NCBI GenBank assembly: GCA_965242525.1
Contig: OZ251459.1
Location: forward strand, 1,920,001-1,984,000
Source: an uncultured Candidatus Binatia bacterium
GTDB taxonomy: Bacteria > Desulfobacterota > Binatia > UBA9968 > JAJDTQ01
Direction of reading: 5' to 3'
DNA length: 64,000 nucleotides
Below the pieces are notes generated by a model that was given only the letters and a program-made list of their open reading frames with translations, searched no databases and was not told the origin of the DNA. The position numbers and the translations under genes were made by a program. Below are positions 40,252-51,993 of the stretch, piece by piece (positions within the stretch are counted from its first letter, which is position 1; each line of letters begins with the position of its first letter).

Positions 40252-40872
40252 CTACAGGGGAGCCGGCCCCTCGAAGTTGGACGTGTAGGGCAGTCCCTCG
40301 GCCGTCCGGGCCACCTGGTCCATGTTGGCGAGCAGCAGCGAAGTGGAGTCCCAGGCGCCGGTGGTGAGGGCGTTCCGGTGGCTGTCCAGGACGTCGATGT
40401 CCACGTGCCCGCCGTCCGGCAAGTGGACCTTCCGGGCCTCCAGGTCCACCGCGAGCTCGGCGTCGGGATTGGACTCCACCAGCGCCATCAGCTTCTCCAT
40501 CTCCTCGGGCGCCGCCGTCACCGTGGGCATGCCCAGCATCACGCTGCTGCCGGCGAAGATCGGCCCGAAGGATTCGCCGACGATGGCCCGGATGCCCCAG
40601 CGGTACAGGGCCTGGGGCGCGTGCTCCCGCGACGACCCGCAACCGAAGTTGCGGTTCACCAGCAGGATCTCTGCCCCCTGGAAGCGCGGCTCGTTGAACG
40701 GATGCGCCGCGGGTTTCCCGTCCGAGTCGAAGCGCTCGTCGAAGAACGGGTACTCGCCCATGCGGTGGAAAGTGATTTCCTTGAGGTAACGGGCGGGAAC
40801 GATCCGGTCGGTGTCGATGTCGTGCCCGCGCACCGCCACCGCCCTGCCTCTTACCTGCCTGATCTCGTTCAT
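40252..40872 (-). CDS. leuD: 3-isopropylmalate dehydratase small subunit
   Basis: [36 protein letters not shown]. Confidence 0.95.
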
Positions 40873-40883
40873 GGGGACCTCGA

Positions 40884-42279
40884 TCAATTGAATTCGCGCA
40901 CGTCCACGACCCGGCCTTCGAGGGCCGCGGCCGCCACCATGGCGGGACTCATCAACAGGGTGCGCCCGCCCGGGCTCCCCTGGCGGCCGATGAAGTTGCG
41001 GTTCGAGGAAGAGGCGCACACTTCCCGGCCGCTGAGCTTGTCCGGGTTCATGGCCAGGCACATGGAGCAGCCCGCTTCCCTCCACTGGAAGCCGGCTTCG
41101 GTGAACACCCGGTGCAGCCCCGCGGCCTCGGCCTGTTTCTTCACGTCCGCGGACCCGGGCACCACCAGGGCCCTCACCCCCGCGGACACCTTCCTGCCTT
41201 CCGCAACCCGGGCCGCGGCCACCAAGTCCGAGAACCGCGAGTTCGTGCAGGAACCGATGAACGCCACGTCGATGGGGGTGCCGAGGATCGGCGCTCCGGG
41301 CTCCCAGCCCATGTGCTCGTAGGCCTTCTCCACCGTCTTGGGGTCTTCCATCTCTTCGGGCCGCGGCAGGTTCTCCCGCACTCCCACCGCCTGCCCGGGG
41401 TTGATCCCCCAGGTGACCGTGGGTTCGATGGCCGAGCCATCCAGGTCCACCACGTGGTCGTAGGAGGCGTCCGCGTCCGACGCCATGGAGCGCCAGTAGG
41501 CCACCGCCCGGTCGAAGGCGTCGCCTTTGGGAGCGAACGGCCGTCCGAGCAGGTAGTCGAAGGTGGTCTTGTCGGGGTTCACGTAACCCACCAGCGCCCC
41601 CCCCTCGATGCTCATGTTGCAGACGGTCATGCGTTCGTCCATGTTCATGCGGTCCAGCGCTTCCCCCCCGTACTCGTAGGCGAACCCCTTGCCGCCGCCG
41701 ACCCCGAGGCGCCGGATGATGGTCAGGATCACGTCCTTGGCGTGCACCCCCAGGGGGAGACGGCCGTTGACGTTGATACGCCACCTTGAGCCGGTCCATG
41801 GCCAGGGTCTGGGTGGCGAGCACGTCCCGGACCTGGGTCGTGCCGATGCCGAAGGCCAGGGTCCCGAAGGCCCCGTGGGTGCTGGTGTGGCTGTCGCCGC
41901 AGGCCAGGGTCATCCCCGGCTGGGTGAGGCCGAGCTGCGGGCCGATGACGTGGACGATGCCCTGCCGGCTGCTCTCCAGGCCGTAGAACTCGATGCCGAA
42001 GTCCCGGACGTTCTTCTCCAGGGCGGCCATCATGGCTTCGGCCTGCTCGTCGAGGAAGGGCCGGGAGCGCGCGTCCGTGGGGACGATGTGGTCCGCGGTG
42101 GCGAAGGTCCGCCGGGGATAGGCGATGGAAAGCCCGCGTTCCCGCAGCATGTCGAAGGCCTGCGGGGTGGTCACCTCGTGGACCAGGTGCAACCCGATGA
42201 AGAGCTGGGTCTGTCCGGTGGGGAGCGTGGCCACCGAGTGGGCGTCCCACACCTTGTCATAGAGGGTGCGTTCGGACAT
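40884..42279 (-). pseudogene. leuC: 3-isopropylmalate dehydratase large subunit, frameshifted at about 41781 (real lesion or sequencing error)
   Basis: HEVTTPQAF and [13 protein letters not shown] lie in one frame; [21 protein letters not shown] and GCSMCLAMN lie in another; span is 1396 nt (3n+1). Confidence 0.9.
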
Positions 42280-42345
42280 GGATCGGTTCTCCTTGCGGGG
42301 AATCATAGCCGCGGACCGGCGCGGTTTCAAGCCGGGACCCGAGAC

Positions 42346-43129: not shown

Positions 43130-44152
43130 TCAGTGGTAGTCCCGGATCAGGATCTCCGCGACCTGCACCGCGTTGAGGGCCGCGCCCTTGCGCAGGTTGT
43201 CGCCCACCACCCAGAGGTTGAGGCCGTTGTCCACCGAGTCGTCTTCCCGGATGCGGCCCACGAACGTGGCGTCCTTGCCGGTCACCTCGGTGGCCAGCGG
43301 GTAGCCGTTGTCCTGGGGGTCGTCCTGGAGCAGCACCCCGGGGGCCTCCCTGAGGATGGCGCGGACGTCGCCCGCGGACAGCTTGGTGCGGGTCTCCACG
43401 TTGATGGACTCGGAGTGGCTGCAGAAAACCGGGACGCGCACCGCGGTGGCGGTGATGCGGATGTCCGGGTCGCCGAGGATCTTGCGCGTCTCCCGGATCA
43501 TCTTCATCTCTTCCCCGGTGTAGCCGTTGGGCAGGAACGAATCGATGTGGGGAATGCAGTTGAAGGCGATCCGGTGCGGGAACCGCTCGCATTCCACCTC
43601 CTGCCCGTTGAACAACGCCGCGGTCTGGCTCCCGAGCTCCTCCATGGCCTGCCGTCCGGCGCCGGACACCGACTGGTAGGTGGACACCACGATGCGGGTG
43701 ATCCCCGCGGCGTCGTACAGGGGCTTCAGGGCCACCACCATCTGGATGGTGGAGCAGTTGGGGTTGGCGATGATGCCCCGCCGGACGTGCCCGGCGATCT
43801 CCCGGGCGTTGACTTCCGGGACCACCAGCGGAACGTCGTCGTCCATGCGGAAACGGCTGGTGTTGTCGATGACCACCGCGCCCGCGTCCACCGCGGCCGG
43901 AGCATACCGGGCGCTCACCGACGAGCCCGCGGAGAACAGCGCGATGTCCACGTCGTCGAAGGAATCCTCGTCCAGGACCTCTACCGGAACCTGTCGGCCG
44001 CAGAACTCCAGCCGCTGGCCCGCGGACCTCTCGGAGGCCAGCAGCCGGAGCCGGTCCACCGGGAACGAACGTTCCGCGAGGATCTTCCGCATCTCCTCGC
44101 CCACCGCGCCCGTGGCCCCCACCACCGCGACGTTGTACTTGTCCTTGCCCAT
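43130..44152 (-). CDS. asd: Aspartate-semialdehyde dehydrogenase
   Basis: VVGATGAVG, IANPNCSTIQ, STYQSVSGAG, DNLRKGAALNAVQ. Confidence 0.97.
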   Translation of the reverse strand: MGKDKYNVAVVGATGAVGEEMRKILAERSFPVDRLRLLASERSAGQRLEFCGRQVPVEVLDEDSFDDVDIALFSAGSSVSARYAPAAVDAGAVVIDNTSRFRMDDDVPLVVPEVNAREIAGHVRRGIIANPNCSTIQMVVALKPLYDAAGITRIVVSTYQSVSGAGRQAMEELGSQTAALFNGQEVECERFPHRIAFNCIPHIDSFLPNGYTGEEMKMIRETRKILGDPDIRITATAVRVPVFCSHSESINVETRTKLSAGDVRAILREAPGVLLQDDPQDNGYPLATEVTGKDATFVGRIREDDSVDNGLNLWVVGDNLRKGAALNAVQVAEILIRDYH

Positions 44153-44154
44153 GG

Positions 44155-45246
44155 TCACCCGCGGCCCGCCGCGACCTCCCGCCGCACGAGGGAGCCCATC
44201 TCCCGGCACCCCACCGCCGAATCCTTGCCTTCGGCGATGTCCGGCGTGCGATGGCCGGCCTCGAGCACCCGCTCCACCGCCTGCTCGATGCAGTCCGCGG
44301 CGTCGCCCCGGTCGAAGGAATGGCGCAGCATGAGCGCCACGGTCAGGATGGCGGCCAGGGGATTGGCCTGGTCCTGCCCGGCGATGTCCGGGGCGCTGCC
44401 GTGCACCGGTTCGTACATGCCCACCGTGCCGCCGAGGCTGGCCGACGGCAGCATGCCGATGGAGCCCGTCAGCATGGCGGCCTCGTCGCTCAGGATGTCG
44501 CCGAACATGTTGGTGGTCACGATCACGTCGAACTGCTTCGGGTCCCGGATGAGCTGCATGGCGCAGTTGTCCACCAGCACGTGCTCGAGCTCCACGTCTC
44601 CGTAGCCCTCCTCACGGTGCACCCGGGTCACGACCTTGCGCCACAACTCCGTGGACTCCAGCACGTTGGCCTTGTCCACCGAGGTCACCCGGCGGCGCCG
44701 CCTGCGCGCGGCGTCGAAGGCCACCCTGGCGATCCTCTCGATCTCCGGGGTGGAATAGACCAGGGTGTTGACGCCGCGTTCGGTCCCGTCCGGCCCGGAG
44801 GTGACCCCCTTGGGCTGCCCGAAGTAGATGCCGCCGGTCAGCTCCCGGACCACCACCAGGTCGGTCCCCTGCACCACCTCGGGCTTGAGGGTGGAGGCCT
44901 GCGCCAGGGGCCCGAACAGCTTCACCGGCCGCAGGTTGGCGAACAGGCCCAACTCTTGGCGCAAGGCGAGCAGCGCCCGCTCGGGGCGGATGGAATAGTC
45001 CAGTCCGTCCCACTTGGGTCCGCCCATGGCGCCCAGGACCACCGCGTCGCCGGACTTGGCCAACCCGAGGACCTCGTCGGTCAGGGGCTTCCCGTGGACG
45101 TCGATGGAGGCTCCCCCCACCAACCCTTCCTCCACTTCCACGGCGAAGCCGAAGACCTCCGCGGCCTGCCGCAGCACCGCCAGGGCTTCCGCCGCCACTT
45201 CCGGGCCGATGCCGTCGCCCGGAAGCACCGTAACCTTGTGGCTCAT
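44155..45246 (-). CDS. leuB: 3-isopropylmalate dehydrogenase
   Basis: [51 protein letters not shown]. Confidence 0.97.
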
Positions 45247-46799
45247 GGCCCCCCCTCCACCGGGACTTGGCGGTGACGCTTGCGGTACTCCAGGCGATTC
45301 AGGGCGTTCACGTACGCCAGGGCGCTCGCCATGATGATGTCGGTGTGGGAACCCTTCCCGGTGATCTGGACGTCCTTGTCCTGGAGCATGCACGATACCT
45401 CGCCCTGGGCGTCGGTGCCGCCGGTGACGCTCGACACCGAATAGCGCCGCAGCCTCGCATGGCTGCCGGAAAGCCGGGCGATGGCTTTATAGCACGCATC
45501 CACCACCCCGTCACCCGTGTCGTGGGCCACCCGCTCGTTGCCGTCCACCCGCATCCGCACCGTGGCCGACGGAACCGCGGACGAGCTCGACGCGATGTTC
45601 ATATAGACCAGCTCGTAGCGGTCCGGCTGGCTCGGTATCCGCAGCACCTCGTCGGCCACCAGGGCCTCGATGTCCTCGTCGAAGACCTCCTTCTTCTTGT
45701 CGGCGAGCTGCTTGAACCGCTCGAAGGCCCGGTTCACCTCGTCCTTGTTGAGCGTGAAGCCCAAATGCTTGAGCCTTTCGCCGAAGGCGTGCCGGCCGGA
45801 GTGCTTGCCCATGACCAGCCGGTTGCCGCTGATGCCGATGGTCTCCGGCTTCATGATCTCGTAGGTGAGCTTCTGCTTCAGCACGCCGTCCTGGTGGATC
45901 CCCGCCTCGTGGGCGAAGGCGTTGTCCCCCACGATGGGCTTGTTCAAGGGGACCACGATGCCGGTGACCTGGGACAGCAGGCGCGACGTGGGGTAGATCT
46001 GCTCGGTGCGGACGTTGGTGTCCAGGTGGAAGACCGACCGCCGCGTCTTCAACGCCATGACCACCTCTTCCAGCGACGTGTTGCCGGCCCGCTCGCCGAT
46101 GCCGTTCACCGTGCACTCCACCTGGCGCACGCCGTTGACCACTGCGGACAGGGAGTTGGCCACGGCCAGGCCCAGGTCGTTGTGGCAGTGGGCGCTCCAG
46201 GTGACCTCGTCCGAACCCTCCACGCGGTCGATCAGATACCGCACCAGCTCCCCGAACTCGGAGGGTATGGCGTAGCCCGTGGTGTCCGGGATGTTGAGGG
46301 TCCTGGCGCCGGCCTTGACGGCCTCGCCGAAGACCTGCGCCAGGAAGTCCGGGTCGCTGCGCGAAGCGTCCTCGGCCGAGAACTCCACGTAGTCCAGGTG
46401 CTTCCGGGCGTACCGGACGGCCGCCCCCACCGCGTCCAGCACCTCGCTGCGGCCCATCCGGAGCTTGTGCTTCAGGTGGATGTCCGAGGTGGCGATGAAG
46501 GTGTGGAGGCCGGGCCTGCGCGCCCCTTCCACCGCCTTGACGGCCTTCCGGATGTCGCCCTGCTGGGCCCTCGCAAGGCTCAGGACGATGGGCCGCCGGA
46601 CGGCCTTGCACACCTGCGCCACCGATTCGAAGTCCCCCGGCGACGAAGCGGCGAAGCCCGCCTCGATGACGTCCACCCCGAGCTTCTCCAGTTGCCGCGC
46701 GACGAGGACCTTCTCGTCGATGTTCATGCTGGCCCCGGGCGACTGCTCGCCGTCCCTGAGGGTGGTATCGAAGATCTTTACGACGTCCTTGGCGCCCAT
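45243..46799 (-). CDS. leuA: 2-isopropylmalate synthase
   Basis: [40 protein letters not shown]-terminal regulatory domain. Confidence 0.97.
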
Positions 46800-46812
46800 G
46801 GTCTCCCTCCTC

Positions 46813-46846
46813 AAAAAAAAACTCCCGCGGAGGTCCGGCGGGAGTT
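46813..46846 (-). terminator. Intrinsic terminator between pssA and the leuA RBS (attenuator terminator)
   Basis: AACTCCCGC-cggacctcc-GCGGGAG followed by T9 on the minus strand, immediately before GAGGAGGGAGACC-ATG of leuA. Confidence 0.85.
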
Positions 46847-47035
46847 CGAGTCATGCGAGCTGGTTCTGCTTCCTGGTCAGGCCTGGGCGAGCGCCCGCTC
46901 TTCCCTCCGTCGCTCCCGCACGGCGAGCAACCATAGTAAGGGACCCGATAAGGTGTACAGCAATAGCGCCGAGAACAACACGATCTGCCACATGGCGATG
47001 GCCAGTATAACGACTGCCAACGCGGAAAGCAACAA
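46813..47035 (-). promoter_or_regulatory. Putative leucine transcription attenuator embedded in the pssA 3' end
   Basis: 14 Leu codons in 37, 11 of them TTG/TTA/CTA/CTT; CCGTGCGGGAGCGA (46923-46910) is complementary to the terminator 5' arm. Confidence 0.65.
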
Positions 47036-47713
47036 CCAAATGGTGCTGCGCTTCTTGAAGTGGTGCTGCTTCAGGCTGGAGTAGCGGAAGTTGCTGACCA
47101 TCAGGCCTGCCAGCGCGCACGCCGCCGCCATGAACACCAAGGGCTTGGCGTCCGCGTCCTCGAGCCCCAGCATGGACCAGATGAAGACGAAGGCGGCGAC
47201 CATGGCCGCGGCCGCGGGGATGGGCAAGCCGGTGAAGTAGCTCTTCTCCGCCGACAGCGTCTGGACGTTGAAACGCGCCAGGCGCAAGGCCCCGCAAACG
47301 GCGAACAGGGCGGCCCCGATACCGCCCCAGGCGCCCCAGGGGGCCAGCGCGAAGACGTACGCGAGCACCGCGGGCGCGACGCCGAACGAGACCACGTCGG
47401 CCAGCGAATCGAACTCGACCCCGAACCGGCTGGCGGTATGGGTCAGCCTGGCCACCGCGCCGTCCACCCCGTCCAGCAGGTTCGCGGCCAAAATCAACAG
47501 GGCCGCCCGGTGGTGCTCGCCGTCGAAGGCGAAGAGGACGGCGAAGACGCCGCAGAAGAGGTTGCCCGCGGTGAACAGGCTGGGGAGGAGGAAGATGCCC
47601 CGGCGCAGCCGGTGGGCCGGATTGCGGCGCTTCCCGCGGCTCCGCCGGATCTTTCCCCGGGGGATCAGGCGGACCTTCCGCAACCGCGCGTCCTGGTTTC
47701 CGGAACGTTCCAT
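46877..47713 (-). CDS. pssA: CDP-diacylglycerol--serine O-phosphatidyltransferase
   Basis: LPSLFTAGNLFCG, DGVDGAVAR, FDSLADVVSFGVAPA, ALRLARFN, FTGLPIPAAA. Confidence 0.95.
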   Translation of the reverse strand: MERSGNQDARLRKVRLIPRGKIRRSRGKRRNPAHRLRRGIFLLPSLFTAGNLFCGVFAVLFAFDGEHHRAALLILAANLLDGVDGAVARLTHTASRFGVEFDSLADVVSFGVAPAVLAYVFALAPWGAWGGIGAALFAVCGALRLARFNVQTLSAEKSYFTGLPIPAAAAMVAAFVFIWSMLGLEDADAKPLVFMAAACALAGLMVSNFRYSSLKQHHFKKRSTIWLLLSALAVVILAIAMWQIVLFSALLLYTLSGPLLWLLAVRERRREERALAQA

Positions 47714-47720
47714 GGCCCCG

Positions 47721-48320
47721 TCAGAGCCTCGCCACGACGGTTTCCCCGCTGCGCACCCGCTGGCCGGGACGCACCTCCACCGCGGCCCCGGGGGGCAGGC
47801 GCAGGTCCACGCGGGAGCCGAACATGATCAGGCCGAAGCGCTCGCCCTTCCGCAACGGGTCTCCCGGGCCCACGTCGCAAACGATGCGGCGGGCGAGGAA
47901 GCCCGCGATCTGCACCACCTGGAGGGTCTTTCCCGAATCCTCCACGAACTCGACCACGTTGCGCTCGTTCTCGTCGGACGCCTTGCCCCGGTTGGCGGCG
48001 AAGAAACGGCCCGGACGGTAGCGGACGTCCTGCACCCGTCCGTTCATGGGGGCCCGGTTGACGTGTACGTCCAGGGGCGAGAGGAAGATGCTGAGCCTGC
48101 GGCCCTCGTCGCTCACCTCCACGACCTTGCCGTCCGCCGGCGACACCACCACCCCGTCCCCGTCCGGGGCGGTCCGCTCCGGGTCCCGGAAGAACCCCGC
48201 AAGGGCCAACGCCGCGGCCGCCAAGGCAACGCCGGCCGCGAGCCAGCCCGCGGCCAGAGCCGCGGCCGCCAGGGCCGACGCAACGAATACGAACCGGTAG
48301 CCTTCCCTTGCGATCCGGAT
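47721..48320 (-). CDS. psd: Phosphatidylserine decarboxylase proenzyme (start uncertain, probably ATC)
   Basis: RIAREG, FFRDPER, SPADGKV, IFLSPLDVHVNRAP, IMFGSRVD self-cleavage motif. Confidence 0.9.
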   Translation of the reverse strand: MRIAREGYRFVFVASALAAAALAAGWLAAGVALAAAALALAGFFRDPERTAPDGDGVVVSPADGKVVEVSDEGRRLSIFLSPLDVHVNRAPMNGRVQDVRYRPGRFFAANRGKASDENERNVVEFVEDSGKTLQVVQIAGFLARRIVCDVGPGDPLRKGERFGLIMFGSRVDLRLPPGAAVEVRPGQRVRSGETVVARL

Positions 48321-48376
48321 GGGAGCCTCCCCGCGAAACCGTGCGGCCTCCCTCCGAGGGAGGGGACCCGCACGGC

Positions 48377-49393
48377 CTAGTTCCTGCTCTTGTCCACCAA
48401 CCGGTCCTCCGCCAGCCACGGCATCATGGACCTGAGCTGCTCGCCCACCTTCTCGATGGGATGGCTGCGCGACGCCTGGCGCAGCTCGTCGAAGCGCGCC
48501 GACCCCGAACGGTGCTCGGCCATCCACTCGTCGGCGAACTTCCCGGACTGGATGTCCGCCAGGATATCCTTCATGACCTTGCGCGTGCCCTCCCCGACGA
48601 TGCGCCTGCCCCGGGTGAGGTCGCCGTACTCCGCGGTGTTGCTCACCGAGTAGCGCATGTTGGCCAAGCCGCCTTCATAGATCAGGTCCACGATCAGCTT
48701 GACCTCGTGGCAGCACTCGAAATAGGCCATCTCCGGAGGGTAACCCGCCTCCACCAGGGTCTCGTAGCCCGCCTGGATCAGCGACGTGAGGCCGCCGCAC
48801 AGCACCGTCTGCTCGCCGAACAGGTCGGTCTCCGTCTCGTCCTTGAAGGTGGTCTCGATGACCGCGGCCCGGGCCCCGCCGATGGCCGCGGCGTAGGCCA
48901 GCCCCACGGAGCGGGTGTCTCCGGACGGGTCCTGCTCGATGGCCAACAGGCAGGGCACCCCCCTGCCCCGCTCGAACTCGCTCCGCACCAGGTGGCCGGG
49001 GCCCTTGGGCGCCACCATGAAGACGTTGACGTCCTCGGGCGGCGCCACCCGCTTGAAGTGGATGTTGAAGCCGTGCCCGAAGGCCAGGTAGTTCCCCGGC
49101 CGGAGACCCGGCCGGATGACCTGTTCGTACGCTTCGCCCTGGAGCTCGTCCGGCAGCAGGACCATCACCACGTCCCCCGCTTCCGCGGCCTCCGCGGTCT
49201 CCATCACCGCCAGGCCCGCCTCCGCGGCCTTGGCCCAGGAGGCGCTGTCGCGCCGCAGCCCCACCACCACGTCCACGCCCGAGTCGCGCAGGTTGCTCGC
49301 GTGGGCGTGCCCCTGGCTGCCGTAACCGAGCACGGTCACCTTGCGGTCGCGGATCCGGTCCAGGTCCGCGTCCCGGTCATAGTAAACCTGCAT
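48377..49393 (-). CDS. ilvC: Ketol-acid reductoisomerase
   Basis: [39 protein letters not shown]. Confidence 0.97.
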
Positions 49394-49417
49394 GATCAAC
49401 CTCCCTGCGGGCAGCGG

Positions 49418-49897
49418 TCACAGCGGTTCCCGCGTGATGGCGATCCGGCCGGTGCGAACGATCTCCTTGATGCCCATGGGCTTCAACAGATGGATCACCG
49501 CCTGGATCTTCCGGGCGTCCCCCGACACCTCCAGTGTGTAGGTCTGGGGCGTCGAATCGACCACATGGGCGCGGAATATGTGCGCGATCCTCATGGCTTC
49601 GTCCCGTTGCGCGGGCTTGGCCAGGATCTTGATGAGCGCCGTTTCCCGGTCGATGTGGTCTTCCTCGGTCAGGTCCACGACCTTCAGGACCTCGATGACC
49701 TTGTTGAGCTGCTTCATGATCTGCTCGATGATGTCCTCGTCGCCCGAGGTCACCACCGTGATCATGGAGATGCTGGAGTCCGGCGTCGGCGCCACCGAAA
49801 GGCTCTCGATGTTGTAGCCCCGGGCGCTGAACAGGCCGGCCACCCGCGCCAGCACCCCGGCCTTGTTCTCCACCAGAACGGAGATGATGTGTTCCAT
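49418..49897 (-). CDS. ilvN: Acetolactate synthase small subunit
   Basis: SVLVENKAGVLARVAGLFSARGYNIESL, EIVRTG. Confidence 0.96.
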   Translation of the reverse strand: MEHIISVLVENKAGVLARVAGLFSARGYNIESLSVAPTPDSSISMITVVTSGDEDIIEQIMKQLNKVIEVLKVVDLTEEDHIDRETALIKILAKPAQRDEAMRIAHIFRAHVVDSTPQTYTLEVSGDARKIQAVIHLLKPMGIKEIVRTGRIAITREPL

Positions 49898-49909
49898 CCG
49901 TCCGAACCC

Positions 49910-51685
49910 CTACGCCGGCAGGACGGCGTCCGCATCCTCTCCCTTTTTCCGTGTGGTCTTGCGCGCGGTCTTCAGTTGCGGCGGGTCCTCCAGCACCATC
50001 TCGTGCTGGGCGCCCCCGGCCGGGATCATCGGGTAGCAGTTCTCGAACCGGTCGATGGCGAAGTTCATCAGCACCGGGCCCTTGTGCCGGAGCCCTTCCT
50101 TCAGCACCGCTTCCACGTCCGCGGGTCCGTCCGAGTGGAGCCCGAGTATGCCGTAGGCCTCGGCGAGCTTGACGAAATCGGGGATGGCCCCCAGGTCGCT
50201 GGAGGCGTAGCGCCCGTCGTAGAAGAGGTCCTGCCATTGCCGCACCATGCCGTGGAACTGGTTGTTGAGCAGGACGACCTTGACCGGCAGCTTGTGGACG
50301 GCCGCCACCGCCAGCTCCTGCAGGTTCATCTGGAAGCTGCCTTCGCTGGTGATGCACAGCACGGTCTTGTTGGGGTACGCCTTCTGCGCGCCCAGGGCGG
50401 CCGGGAACCCGAAACCCATGGTGCCCAGCCCCCCCGAGGTCAGGAAGGTGCGCTGGGCGGCGCCCTTGAAGTACTGGGCGGCCCACATCTGGTGTTGCCC
50501 CACGTCGGTGACCACGATGGCCTTGTGCCGGGTGAGCTCGTAGGCCTTCTCGATGACGTACTGGGGCTTGGTCTGCTTCTTGCCTTCCTGCTGGTAGGCC
50601 AGCGGATGCTCCGCGGCCCACGCATGGACCTGCCGGAGCCAGGGCCTCCGCTGGGCCTTGACGCTGTCGGGGTCCCCGTCCATGGAGCTCAGCACGTTCA
50701 CCAGCTCCCGCAGCACCGTCTTCACGTCGCCCACGATGGGGATGTGGGCATGCACGTTCTTCTTGATGGAGGTGGGGTCGATGTCGATGTGGATGACCCG
50801 CGCGCGGGGCGAGAACTCGGACAGCTTGCCGGTCACCCGGTCGTCGAACCGGGCGCCCACAGCGATCAGCAGGTCGGCCTCGTGCATGGCCATGTTGGCG
50901 CAATAGGTGCCGTGCATGCCCAACATGCCCATGCACAGGGGGTGGGTTCCGGGAAAGGCCCCCAACCCCATCACCGTCATGGTCACCGGTACCTGGGTCA
51001 GGTCCGCGAACTCGCGCACCTCGTTGGCCGCGCCGGAAAAGATCGCGCCGCCGCCCGCGTAGATCACCGGCCTCCTGGCCTTCAGGATCTCCTGGGCCGC
51101 CTGCTTGATCTGGTGGCGGTTGCCCGACACCGTGGGGCGGTATCCCCGGAGGGCCACCTTGTCGGGATACCGGAACTCCGCGGACTCGGTGCTCACGTCC
51201 TTGGGGATGTCCACCAGCACCGGACCCGGACGCCCGGTGTTGGCGATGTAGAACGCCTCCTTGATGACGGTGGCGAGCTCGGACACGTCCTTCACCAGCA
51301 CGTTGTGCTTGGTGCAGGGACGGCTGATGCCGATGTTGTCGGCTTCCTGGAACGCGTCGTTGCCGATGAGGTTGGTGGGGACCTGCCCGGTGAAGGCCAC
51401 CAGCGGCACGGAGTCCATCATGGCGTCCGCCAGGCCCGTCACGATGTTGGTCATGCCCGGGCCCGAGGTCACCAGCGCCACCCCCGCCCTGCCCGTGGCC
51501 TTGGCGTAGCCCTCGGCCATGTGCACCGCGCCCTGCTCGTGCCGGGTCAGGACCACCTCCACGTCCTCCTGCTGGTGCAGGACGTCGAACAGCTTGAGGA
51601 CCACTCCTCCGGGGATGCCGAAGATGGTCTTCACCCCCTCGCGCTTGAGCGACTCGACGAATATCTCCGACCCGTTCAACCTCAT
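49910..51685 (-). CDS. ilvB: Acetolactate synthase large subunit
   Basis: RHEQGAVHMAEGYA, TSGPG, GARFDDRVTG, DVGQHQMWAAQ, GMVRQWQ. Confidence 0.96.
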   Translation of the reverse strand: MRLNGSEIFVESLKREGVKTIFGIPGGVVLKLFDVLHQQEDVEVVLTRHEQGAVHMAEGYAKATGRAGVALVTSGPGMTNIVTGLADAMMDSVPLVAFTGQVPTNLIGNDAFQEADNIGISRPCTKHNVLVKDVSELATVIKEAFYIANTGRPGPVLVDIPKDVSTESAEFRYPDKVALRGYRPTVSGNRHQIKQAAQEILKARRPVIYAGGGAIFSGAANEVREFADLTQVPVTMTVMGLGAFPGTHPLCMGMLGMHGTYCANMAMHEADLLIAVGARFDDRVTGKLSEFSPRARVIHIDIDPTSIKKNVHAHIPIVGDVKTVLRELVNVLSSMDGDPDSVKAQRRPWLRQVHAWAAEHPLAYQQEGKKQTKPQYVIEKAYELTRHKAIVVTDVGQHQMWAAQYFKGAAQRTFLTSGGLGTMGFGFPAALGAQKAYPNKTVLCITSEGSFQMNLQELAVAAVHKLPVKVVLLNNQFHGMVRQWQDLFYDGRYASSDLGAIPDFVKLAEAYGILGLHSDGPADVEAVLKEGLRHKGPVLMNFAIDRFENCYPMIPAGGAQHEMVLEDPPQLKTARKTTRKKGEDADAVLPA

Positions 51686-51697
51686 GGCTCTCTCCCG

Positions 51698-51925
51698 TCA
51701 GCTCGCCGGCTTGTACTTGCCGAGGATCTCCATGATCTTGTCCTTGCCCACGAGCTTCCGCTTCTGGATGCGTTTCTTCTCCATCTCCTCTTCGGGAGAC
51801 AGGTAACCCTTGTCGTGCAAGTCCACCAACTGCTTCTCGTACTCCAGGTGCTCTTCGTAGTATTTGCGCAATTCCGGGTCCTTATCCAAGACAGAGGCAA
51901 TCATCCGCTCCTCTCTCTCCTCCAT
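51698..51925 (-). CDS. DUF465-like small coiled-coil protein
   Basis: YEEHLEYEKQL...KKRIQKRKLVGKDKI; SD AGGAGG. Confidence 0.75.
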   Translation of the reverse strand: MEEREERMIASVLDKDPELRKYYEEHLEYEKQLVDLHDKGYLSPEEEMEKKRIQKRKLVGKDKIMEILGKYKPAS

Positions 51926-51964: not shown

Positions 51965-51993
51965 AATCTATCCAACGCCCGCTCCTTTGTCAA
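51965..51993 (-). promoter_or_regulatory. Sigma70-type promoter of the DUF465-ilv-psd-pssA-leu operon
   Basis: TTGACA (51993-51988), 17-nt spacer, TAGATT (51970-51965). Confidence 0.55.

Follow-up and report, generated by a model that had tools for sequence, protein, structure and literature searches.

The 3' end of pssA as the probable leader of a leucine-sensing transcription attenuator before leuA in an order of Candidatus Binatia

Attenuators of enterobacterial amino acid operons (leuL, and likewise those of trp, his and ilv) combine an intrinsic terminator before a biosynthetic gene with an antiterminator that shares the 5' arm of that terminator, and are governed by a dedicated short leader open reading frame (ORF) whose tandem cognate codons lie just upstream; in the leu leader, rare leucine codons act as the sensor (E. 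coli leuL uses CUA codons). In SecM-secA and MifM-yidC2, what happens to a ribosome close to the 3' end of the preceding ORF reshapes the mRNA and controls the next gene, the ORFs being dedicated sensors that undergo nascent-chain arrest and act on translation initiation. The T-box, a non-coding RNA of about 220 nucleotides (nt), senses the tRNA directly, with uncharged tRNA-Leu leading to antitermination in the Leu type, and a Leu T-box before leuA is among the elements already published for Geobacter-type bacteria (PMC2700814, PMC2494555). Here we analyze the junction between pssA, encoding a phospholipid enzyme, and leuA, encoding 2-isopropylmalate synthase, in a 64,000-nt stretch of DNA from an uncultured Candidatus Binatia bacterium (contig OZ251459.1, positions 1,920,001 to 1,984,000), hereafter called the window.

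We judge it fairly probable, from the sequences compared below, that transcription into leuA and the genes that follow is attenuated at this junction by a ribosome-mediated mechanism, with the end of the full-length pssA frame in place of a leader peptide; the attenuator would probably be leucine-sensing and would work without a separate leader gene. The case is made by two alternative pairings, by their conservation and covariation, and by rare codons that are specific both in position and to leucine. Like the enterobacterial systems, the locus has a terminator before a biosynthetic gene, an antiterminator that uses the same 5' arm, cognate codons just upstream and rare Leu codons in the role of sensor. 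It departs from the trp/leu textbook scheme in that the dedicated short ORF is absent and the translated frame is the end of a gene for an enzyme of 278 amino acids (aa), that the Leu codons are not in tandem but spread over about 15 codons of a membrane helix, that the stop codon lies between strand 2 (the antiterminator strand) and strand 3 (the terminator 5' arm), and that neither a conserved 1:2 protector helix nor an Rfam Leu-leader match was found. It shares the junction and the proposed logic with the Geobacter Leu T-box, but has a spacer of 77 nt and no T-box match; and it resembles SecM-secA and MifM-yidC2 except that the ORF encodes an enzyme and that the switch would respond to tRNA supply and act on transcription termination. 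The core of this idea was put forward in an earlier note made from the letters of the window alone. The terminator before leuA, the antiterminator strand inside pssA, the rare Leu codons upstream of it and the lack of a separate leader gene are now backed by comparative evidence, whereas three of its details (a heptamer, a protector hairpin and a claim about gene order) fail. The elements of the junction in the window are as follows.

46877-47713, minus strand: pssA, CDP-diacylglycerol--serine O-phosphatidyltransferase, 278 aa (Pfam PF01066; NCBIfam TIGR00473, 144.1 bits, cut-off 107)
46925-46966, minus strand: putative Leu sensor zone, codons 250-263 (CTA, TTG, (CTG), TTA, TTA, CTA, TTG, CTC), flanking the invariant Y-T-L-S-G-P-L-L-W motif
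46910-46923, minus strand: window-specific strong antiterminator strand CCGTGCGGGAGCGA (RNAduplex -19.3 kcal/mol; found in the window and L002 only; present in the minimum free energy (MFE) fold)
46901-46909, minus strand: order-wide antiterminator register, codons 269-271, CGG AGG GAA (Arg-Arg-Glu), equivalent to CGA CGG GAG in families f2 and f3
46878-46897, minus strand: putative small helix CGGGC/GCCUG including two bases of the pssA stop codon, placed in the window from the folds of other genus members (CAGGC...GCCUG)
46877-46879, minus strand: pssA stop codon TGA, downstream of the antiterminator strand and upstream of the terminator 5' arm
46813-46846, minus strand: intrinsic terminator with 5' arm AACTCCCGCCGG, loop ACCT and 3' arm CCGCGGGAG, followed by T9 (from sequence and RNAfold)
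46797-46812, minus strand: leuA Shine-Dalgarno sequence GAGGAGGGAG (46812-46803) and ATG start (46799), where the leuA alignment begins
45243-46799, minus strand: leuA, 2-isopropylmalate synthase (NCBIfam NF002086, 766.8 bits, cut-off 532; TIGR00973, 698.6, cut-off 598.7)

The earlier note placed the terminator directly before the ribosome-binding site of leuA, and it does lie there: the hairpin begins 30 nt past the pssA stop codon, has an energy of -17.3 kcal/mol (RNAfold was used for hairpin energies and RNAduplex for those between arms and partners), and its T9 tract ends 1 nt before the ribosome-binding site. With a GC-rich stem-loop and a U-tract it has what defines a plain intrinsic terminator; an automated promoter and terminator scan listed neither this hairpin nor the candidate internal promoter discussed below. 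PssA was searched for in 123 genomes of the window's order and matched in 113, of which 106 were examined, namely 28 from the window's genus (its own genome included) and 78 from families f2 and f3; the other seven comprise four unpublished genomes, one match at a contig edge and two fragments. The hairpin follows pssA in all 106 (by pattern in 105; in L116 the T-run has decayed), and leuA is the next gene in every one. The spacer measures 71-123 nt in 102 of these genomes and 248 nt in L130; a repeat-like insertion of 170-260 nt lies behind the hairpin in L130 and in three loci where no leuA match was found in short pieces. Order-level genomes L187, L188, L189 and L190 carry a repeat-like insert of 170-260 nt, apparently of two kinds, between the T-run and the leuA ribosome-binding site, with leuA still the next gene. 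L150 (G096) has an in-frame TAG about 60 codons before the normal end of pssA, with the tail, the hairpin and leuA intact downstream; its nominal spacer of 273 nt results from taking this TAG as the stop, and the locus was excluded from codon and pair counts, leaving 105 sequences, 77 of them from f2/f3.

All 104 distinct sequences have CTCCCG and CGGGAG unchanged, the remainder of the spacer being unalignable. This bears on an alternative, that the hairpin is an ordinary constitutive, possibly leaky, terminator of the ilvBNC-psd-pssA transcript that fixes the ratio between upstream and downstream genes, for which a hairpin and a U-tract suffice. In a plain terminator one would expect compensatory changes to accumulate, and not an invariant stem across families whose PssA proteins are only about 52-59% identical; the frozen stem suggests a third constraint, and would fit a stem fixed by pairing with a protein-coding partner. 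We regard the constitutive terminator as an unlikely explanation, to which we return with the codon data. The distance from the stop codon to the 5' arm is at least 23 nt in all 105 sequences, so a ribosome sitting on the stop would leave the terminator unblocked.

A coding partner for the 5' arm is found near the end of pssA. With the Pro of the invariant S-G-P motif taken as reference position P, the 5' arm CUCCCGYNG has its complement, in the 105 sequences, in codons P+11 to P+13, which encode Arg-Arg-Glu and usually read CGA CGG GAG. A search of the upstream ~215 nt of 33 sequences for the best duplex partner of the arm led to these R-R-E codons in 30 and to the segment just upstream of them in the other three. 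The structure of f2/f3 was named by hand and its pairs were counted on an alignment of 76 sequences, each of which was also folded separately. In its outer helix 94.2% of cells are paired; one pair covaries as AU 44 / GU 17 / GC 10, with three unpaired, and its neighbor as GU 40 / AU 16 / GC 9. Over the whole named structure, 94 cells are changed on both sides (shuffles: 44.1 +/- 6.3) and covariation scores 0.225 (shuffles: 0.174), with 0/500 shuffles reaching the observed value in either case, while sliding the partner by 1-3 columns lowers pairing from 76.3% to 42-55%, all with controls that ignore phylogeny among genomes that are kin. The outer helix is present in the MFE folds of 72/76 f2/f3 and 23/26 genus sequences. 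From a MAFFT alignment RNAalifold recovered just four core pairs, owing to the lack of structural alignment in the inner helices. An antiterminator that shares the 5' arm of the terminator and is mutually exclusive with it is thus indicated by the R-R-E pairing and its covariation. If the hairpin were only a terminator, this complementarity would be a by-product or would serve to shape the 3' end of the mRNA, against which the covariation of the alternative pairing speaks.

The antiterminator strand named in the earlier note, 46923-46910, does pair with the terminator 5' arm (-19.3 kcal/mol by RNAduplex), and the pairing is part of the MFE fold of 46935-46835. Its GCGGGAG heptamer (46919-46913), however, is confined to the window and its closest relative L002 among the 28 genus members, the partner used throughout the order being the adjacent R-R-E codons at 46909-46901. 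The heptamer arises from a change of Lys267 to Glu (GAG), where 25 of the 26 other genus members have Lys (AAG); at the heptamer codons these 26 have CGG or CGA followed by AAG or ACG. Through the change at Lys267, the window and L002 have regained a perfect GCGGGAG. In the MFE fold of the whole leader (window 46797-46935, minus strand) the antiterminator persists and CCUCC of the terminator loop pairs with GGAGG of the leuA Shine-Dalgarno sequence, which hints that translation initiation of leuA could be affected too.

Upstream of this strand lies an unusual stretch of Leu codons. The tally proposed at the outset is exact: pssA codons 227-263 (47035-46925) contain 14 Leu codons (TTG x6, TTA x2, CTA x2, CTT x1, CTG x2, CTC x1), 11 of them other than CTG/CTC, and an Ile ATA. 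Genome-wide Leu usage (2,843 ORFs, 1.11 million codons) is CTG 0.53, CTC 0.30, TTG 0.11, CTT 0.05, CTA 0.010 and TTA 0.0025, and the suggested comparison with the rest of the genome ranks the pssA tail as the most extreme 37-codon window of the 2,843 ORFs, with 11 non-CTG/CTC Leu codons where the next ORFs have 9. The two rarest codons are served by one gene each for tRNA-Leu(UAA) and tRNA-Leu(UAG). The unusual codons form two blocks: Block A (codons 225-240), in which the nucleotides themselves are frozen, and Block B (codons 246-263), in which the sequence varies and rarity is kept. Aligning the related junctions, as had been advised, shows rare codons held at the same positions throughout the order, together with the covariation of coding strand and terminator arm described above.

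Within the genus, P-3 is CTA in 20 and TTA in 8 of 28 sequences, P+2 is TTA in 14, CTA in 8, TTG in 3 and CTG in 3 of 28, and P-8 and P-7 are TTA, TTG or CTA in all of 27 sequences, while neither CTA nor TTA occurs among 277 Leu codons in the 5' parts of leuA. The interchange of CTA and TTA at P-3 means that rarity is preserved and not sequence. In f2/f3, TTA is found at P-3 in 59 of 77 sequences, at P+2 in 63 of 77 and at P+5 in 23 of 50, against a background of 2% of Leu codons in leuA and 4% in the pssA body. Strong rarity outliers between P-12 and P+10 are Leu positions only: rarity ratios are 0.01-0.15 for Leu and at lowest 0.48 for other residues in the genus, and 0.18-0.49 and at lowest 0.66, respectively, in f2/f3. 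These rare Leu codons precede strand 2 by 6-16 codons at conserved positions, without forming a tandem run. The Leu-Leu that follows S-G-P is itself peculiar to the window's order, more distant PssA proteins having SGPARW, SGPVYT, SGPAVT and similar. Were the hairpin a plain terminator, the rare Leu codons would be explained as slowing translation for insertion of the last PssA helix, in keeping with the location of these residues in the invariant transmembrane motif YTLSGPLLW; the ordinary codons used for the neighboring Tyr, Thr, Ser, Pro and Phe residues of the zone argue against this, since rarity is restricted to Leu.

Block A calls for a different explanation, and it had been anticipated that a leuA promoter within the pssA tail might account for the codon bias. 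Two further features are involved.

47004-47032, minus strand: candidate sigma-70-type promoter TTGCTT-17 nt-TATACT, pssA codons 228-237 (both hexamers and the spacing identical in 28/28 genus members)
46991-46993, minus strand: in-frame ATG, codon 241, which may start a nested leader of 38 aa, provided that the promoter is real (ATG TGG CAG conserved in the genus)

The frozen nucleotides of Block A read TTG TTG CTT ... GCA GTC RTT ATA, and synonymous entropy is 0.286 in the pssA tail vs 0.440 in the body (p = 0.001). This conserved, promoter-like block could represent an internal promoter, with the start of a nested leader behind it; it accounts for the first four of the 11 rare Leu codons. 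On this basis the attenuator could be a nested one of the classical type, in which an internal promoter starts the leuA transcript near 46997 and the true leader peptide comes from the ORF at ATG 46993 (38 aa, 10 of them Leu), translation of full-length pssA being incidental. This is a variant of the attenuator that we favor, with which it could coexist, and we hold it to be possible but doubtful. Besides the identical hexamers and 17-nt spacing in the genus, it would account for comparable hexamers at the corresponding codons of f2/f3 (TTGGTT in 41/77, and TAnnnT-type), for the frozen synonymous sites with invariant rare ATT, ATA, GCA, GCT and CTT, and for the retention of a downstream in-frame ATG, at codon 241 in 28/28 genus members and four codons further on, at P-13, in 73/77 f2/f3 sequences. 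The -35 hexamer, on the other hand, matches the consensus at just 3 of 6 positions and the site escaped the automated promoter scan; the f2/f3 hexamers are partly dictated by the encoded Ile-Lys/Thr-Leu residues; and the nested start mentioned in the earlier note, conserved as its ATG is, has no evident Shine-Dalgarno sequence.

Between the antiterminator strand and the 5' arm, f2/f3 sequences form a further helix of 10-12 base pairs, topped by a small apical hairpin. The last pssA codons make up the 5' strand of this helix, and its 3' strand starts within the stop codon or immediately behind it. Its sequences diverge widely between genera with complementarity kept; it is present in 76/76 f2/f3 MFE folds, and the mean z relative to interior shuffles is -1.37. 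The equivalent in the window's genus is a 5-base-pair helix CAGGC/GCCUG that includes two stop-codon bases; the window's own MFE fold draws the region 46878-46897 differently. Riboswitches are commonly compact structures closed by a basal helix in competition with a terminator, a layout shared by this assembly of outer helix, stop-spanning helix and apical hairpin, and a ligand- or protein-binding RNA of this kind could control the terminator without translation. We give this explanation very little weight, because no unpaired positions are conserved that could form a binding pocket; moreover, the sequence of the inner helices and junctions is free to vary, one half of the structure codes for protein, and no Rfam family matches. 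An Rfam scan of window 44000-50000 at E <= 10 returned sub-threshold chance matches only, with neither a T-box nor a Leu leader among them.

The ribosome-mediated attenuator would work as follows. We infer that the position of the ribosome decides between the two states and that the supply of leucyl-tRNA is the signal. In the terminator state the 5' arm CUCCCGYNG would pair with GCGGGAG, followed by the U-tract; in the antiterminator state the same arm would be engaged by the Arg-Arg-Glu codons, which lie some 8-11 codons ahead of the pssA stop, assisted in f2/f3 by the stop-spanning helix. If the last ~15 codons are free of ribosomes, the antiterminator would fold first and the polymerase would read through. 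A ribosome that keeps up with the polymerase would pass the R-R-E codons, melt the stop-spanning helix and park on the stop codon, upon which the local terminator hairpin would win and transcription would end after pssA. Under starvation for Leu-tRNA, the ribosome would stall at P-3 to P+5 on the rare UUA/CUA codons around S-G-P-L-L-W, 6-16 codons upstream; its front edge would then fall short of P+11, and the free antiterminator would allow readthrough into leuA-leuB-asd-truA.

Several observations weigh against this mechanism. The folding energies of the window sequence are ordinary relative to shuffles (z = +0.89 and -0.77), so that the case cannot rest on a single sequence, and the genus interior as a whole is about as stable as shuffles (mean z -0.17). 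The order-wide register is weak in the window's genus, where an A.G mismatch leaves it at -12.8 kcal/mol vs -17.3 for the terminator. The relatedness of the genomes, to which the covariation controls are blind, means that the counts overstate the independence of the sequences. The protector hairpin proposed earlier, TTGCTC/GAGCGA, is predicted in the MFE fold of the window sequence and is lineage-specific; no conserved 1:2 helix was found, averaged pair probabilities giving diffuse partners, and the logic is accordingly not the full 1:2 / 2:3 / 3:4 scheme that had been envisaged. Because the stop codon separates strands 2 and 3, a terminating ribosome leaves strand 2 uncovered, and that it would still prevent antitermination is a matter of steric and kinetic argument. 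The four rare Leu codons within Block A look like part of a promoter and not of a sensor. The Leu residues of the sensor zone belong to an invariant membrane-helix motif, where rare codons could instead serve co-translational insertion.

Another such point comes from outside the order. A phylum-wide scan for the pattern CTCCCG..CGGGAGYTTT gave matches in 70 of 401 genomes. The three same-class matches from outside the order were checked: two (L191, L192) are unrelated terminators, and the third (G486, locus L193), from another order of the class, sits after pssA. G486 has pssA-hairpin-leuA and a CGG GAA partner for the 5' arm, with common Leu codons (CTC/CTG) and the tail SGPAAWLW; this form may be an earlier or a differently regulated version. 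A hairpin retained without rare Leu codons, like the unremarkable energies of single sequences, is what a constitutive terminator would lead one to expect. Such a terminator would not, however, account for the Leu-specific sensors that relatives carry at exactly the same junction.

The pssA-leuA adjacency is shared by 39 of the 80 loci compared across many phyla, eight of the 39 belonging to the window's order, and some of these junctions carry a T-box or a separate leader. Being older and wider than the device, the adjacency would be exploited by the attenuator and not explained by it, and the suggestion that the attenuator is the reason why psd-pssA lies between the ilv and leu genes is not borne out. 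Among 20 other loci scanned, four of Geobacter type (L048, L054, L056 and L063) have a T-box (RF00230, 110-128 bits) at the junction. Five more distant Binatia-labelled contigs (L039, L043, L044, L046 and L104) have a spacer of 226-302 nt with its own ORF of 27-31 aa, containing 6-7 Leu codons (some CTA/TTA) and followed by paired hairpins and T-rich tracts; their spacers match no Rfam family at the gathering score. These contigs share with the window's order the junction, the regulated gene, the Leu codons, the hairpins and the T-rich tracts, and differ from it in the long spacer with its ORF and in a PssA that reads SGPARW or similar in place of SGPLLW. Given the T-box loci and the separate-leader contigs, leucine-specific control is apparently the rule at the pssA-leuA junction, and the window's order fits it into a spacer of 71-123 nt, which is too small for a leader gene.

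The minus-strand gene order in the window, assigned with Pfam, is ilvB-ilvN-ilvC, psd, pssA, leuA, leuB, asd, truA, with one gene in addition to those listed above placed as follows.

47721-48527, minus strand: psd

No ORF was found within the 77-nt pssA-leuA spacer. The NCBIfam scores identify the leuA product as a true 2-isopropylmalate synthase, the score of the citramalate synthase model being far under its cut-off. An ORF of 692 aa (40252-42330, minus strand) matches only the N-terminal part of Aconitase and the Aconitase_C domain. Ahead of ilvB (ATG 51685) there are a sigma-70-like site, TTGACA-17-TAGATT, at 51965-51993 (minus strand) and, behind it and directly before the gene, a 75-aa ORF (51698-51925, minus strand). 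No leader ORF rich in Ile, Val or Leu is visible upstream of ilvB, which makes the element after pssA the only attenuator-like one found in the operon. Our survey of the literature yielded no account of an attenuator that uses the end of an upstream enzyme gene as its leader, nor of a pssA-leuA terminator, its scope ending short of subscription-journal papers on proteobacterial attenuators, where priority is possible.

We consider it an even call whether the wider picture holds, namely that the essential phospholipid gene pssA has been co-opted as a leucine sensor, that its C-terminal residues (Leu-Leu after S-G-P, and Arg-Arg-Glu) and its codon choice are under dual selection, for the enzyme and for a regulatory RNA or stall site, that three leucine sensors (T-box, separate leader peptide and coding-tail attenuator) came to occupy the junction independently of each other, and that the arrangement might tie leucine synthesis to the expression of membrane-lipid genes. 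If so, the pssA-leuA junction would offer a natural series for the birth and replacement of attenuators, with built-in comparative controls in the 106 genomes and in the sister lineages that have a leader peptide or a T-box at the same place. Every ribosome translating pssA would report to the switch, which is where a link between leucine synthesis and membrane-lipid gene expression could arise. Textbook attenuation requires a dedicated mini-gene; if the tail of an enzyme gene suffices, operon-internal terminators right after coding regions would become candidate conditional switches, and downstream regulation may also shape codon choice, and even residues, at protein C-termini.

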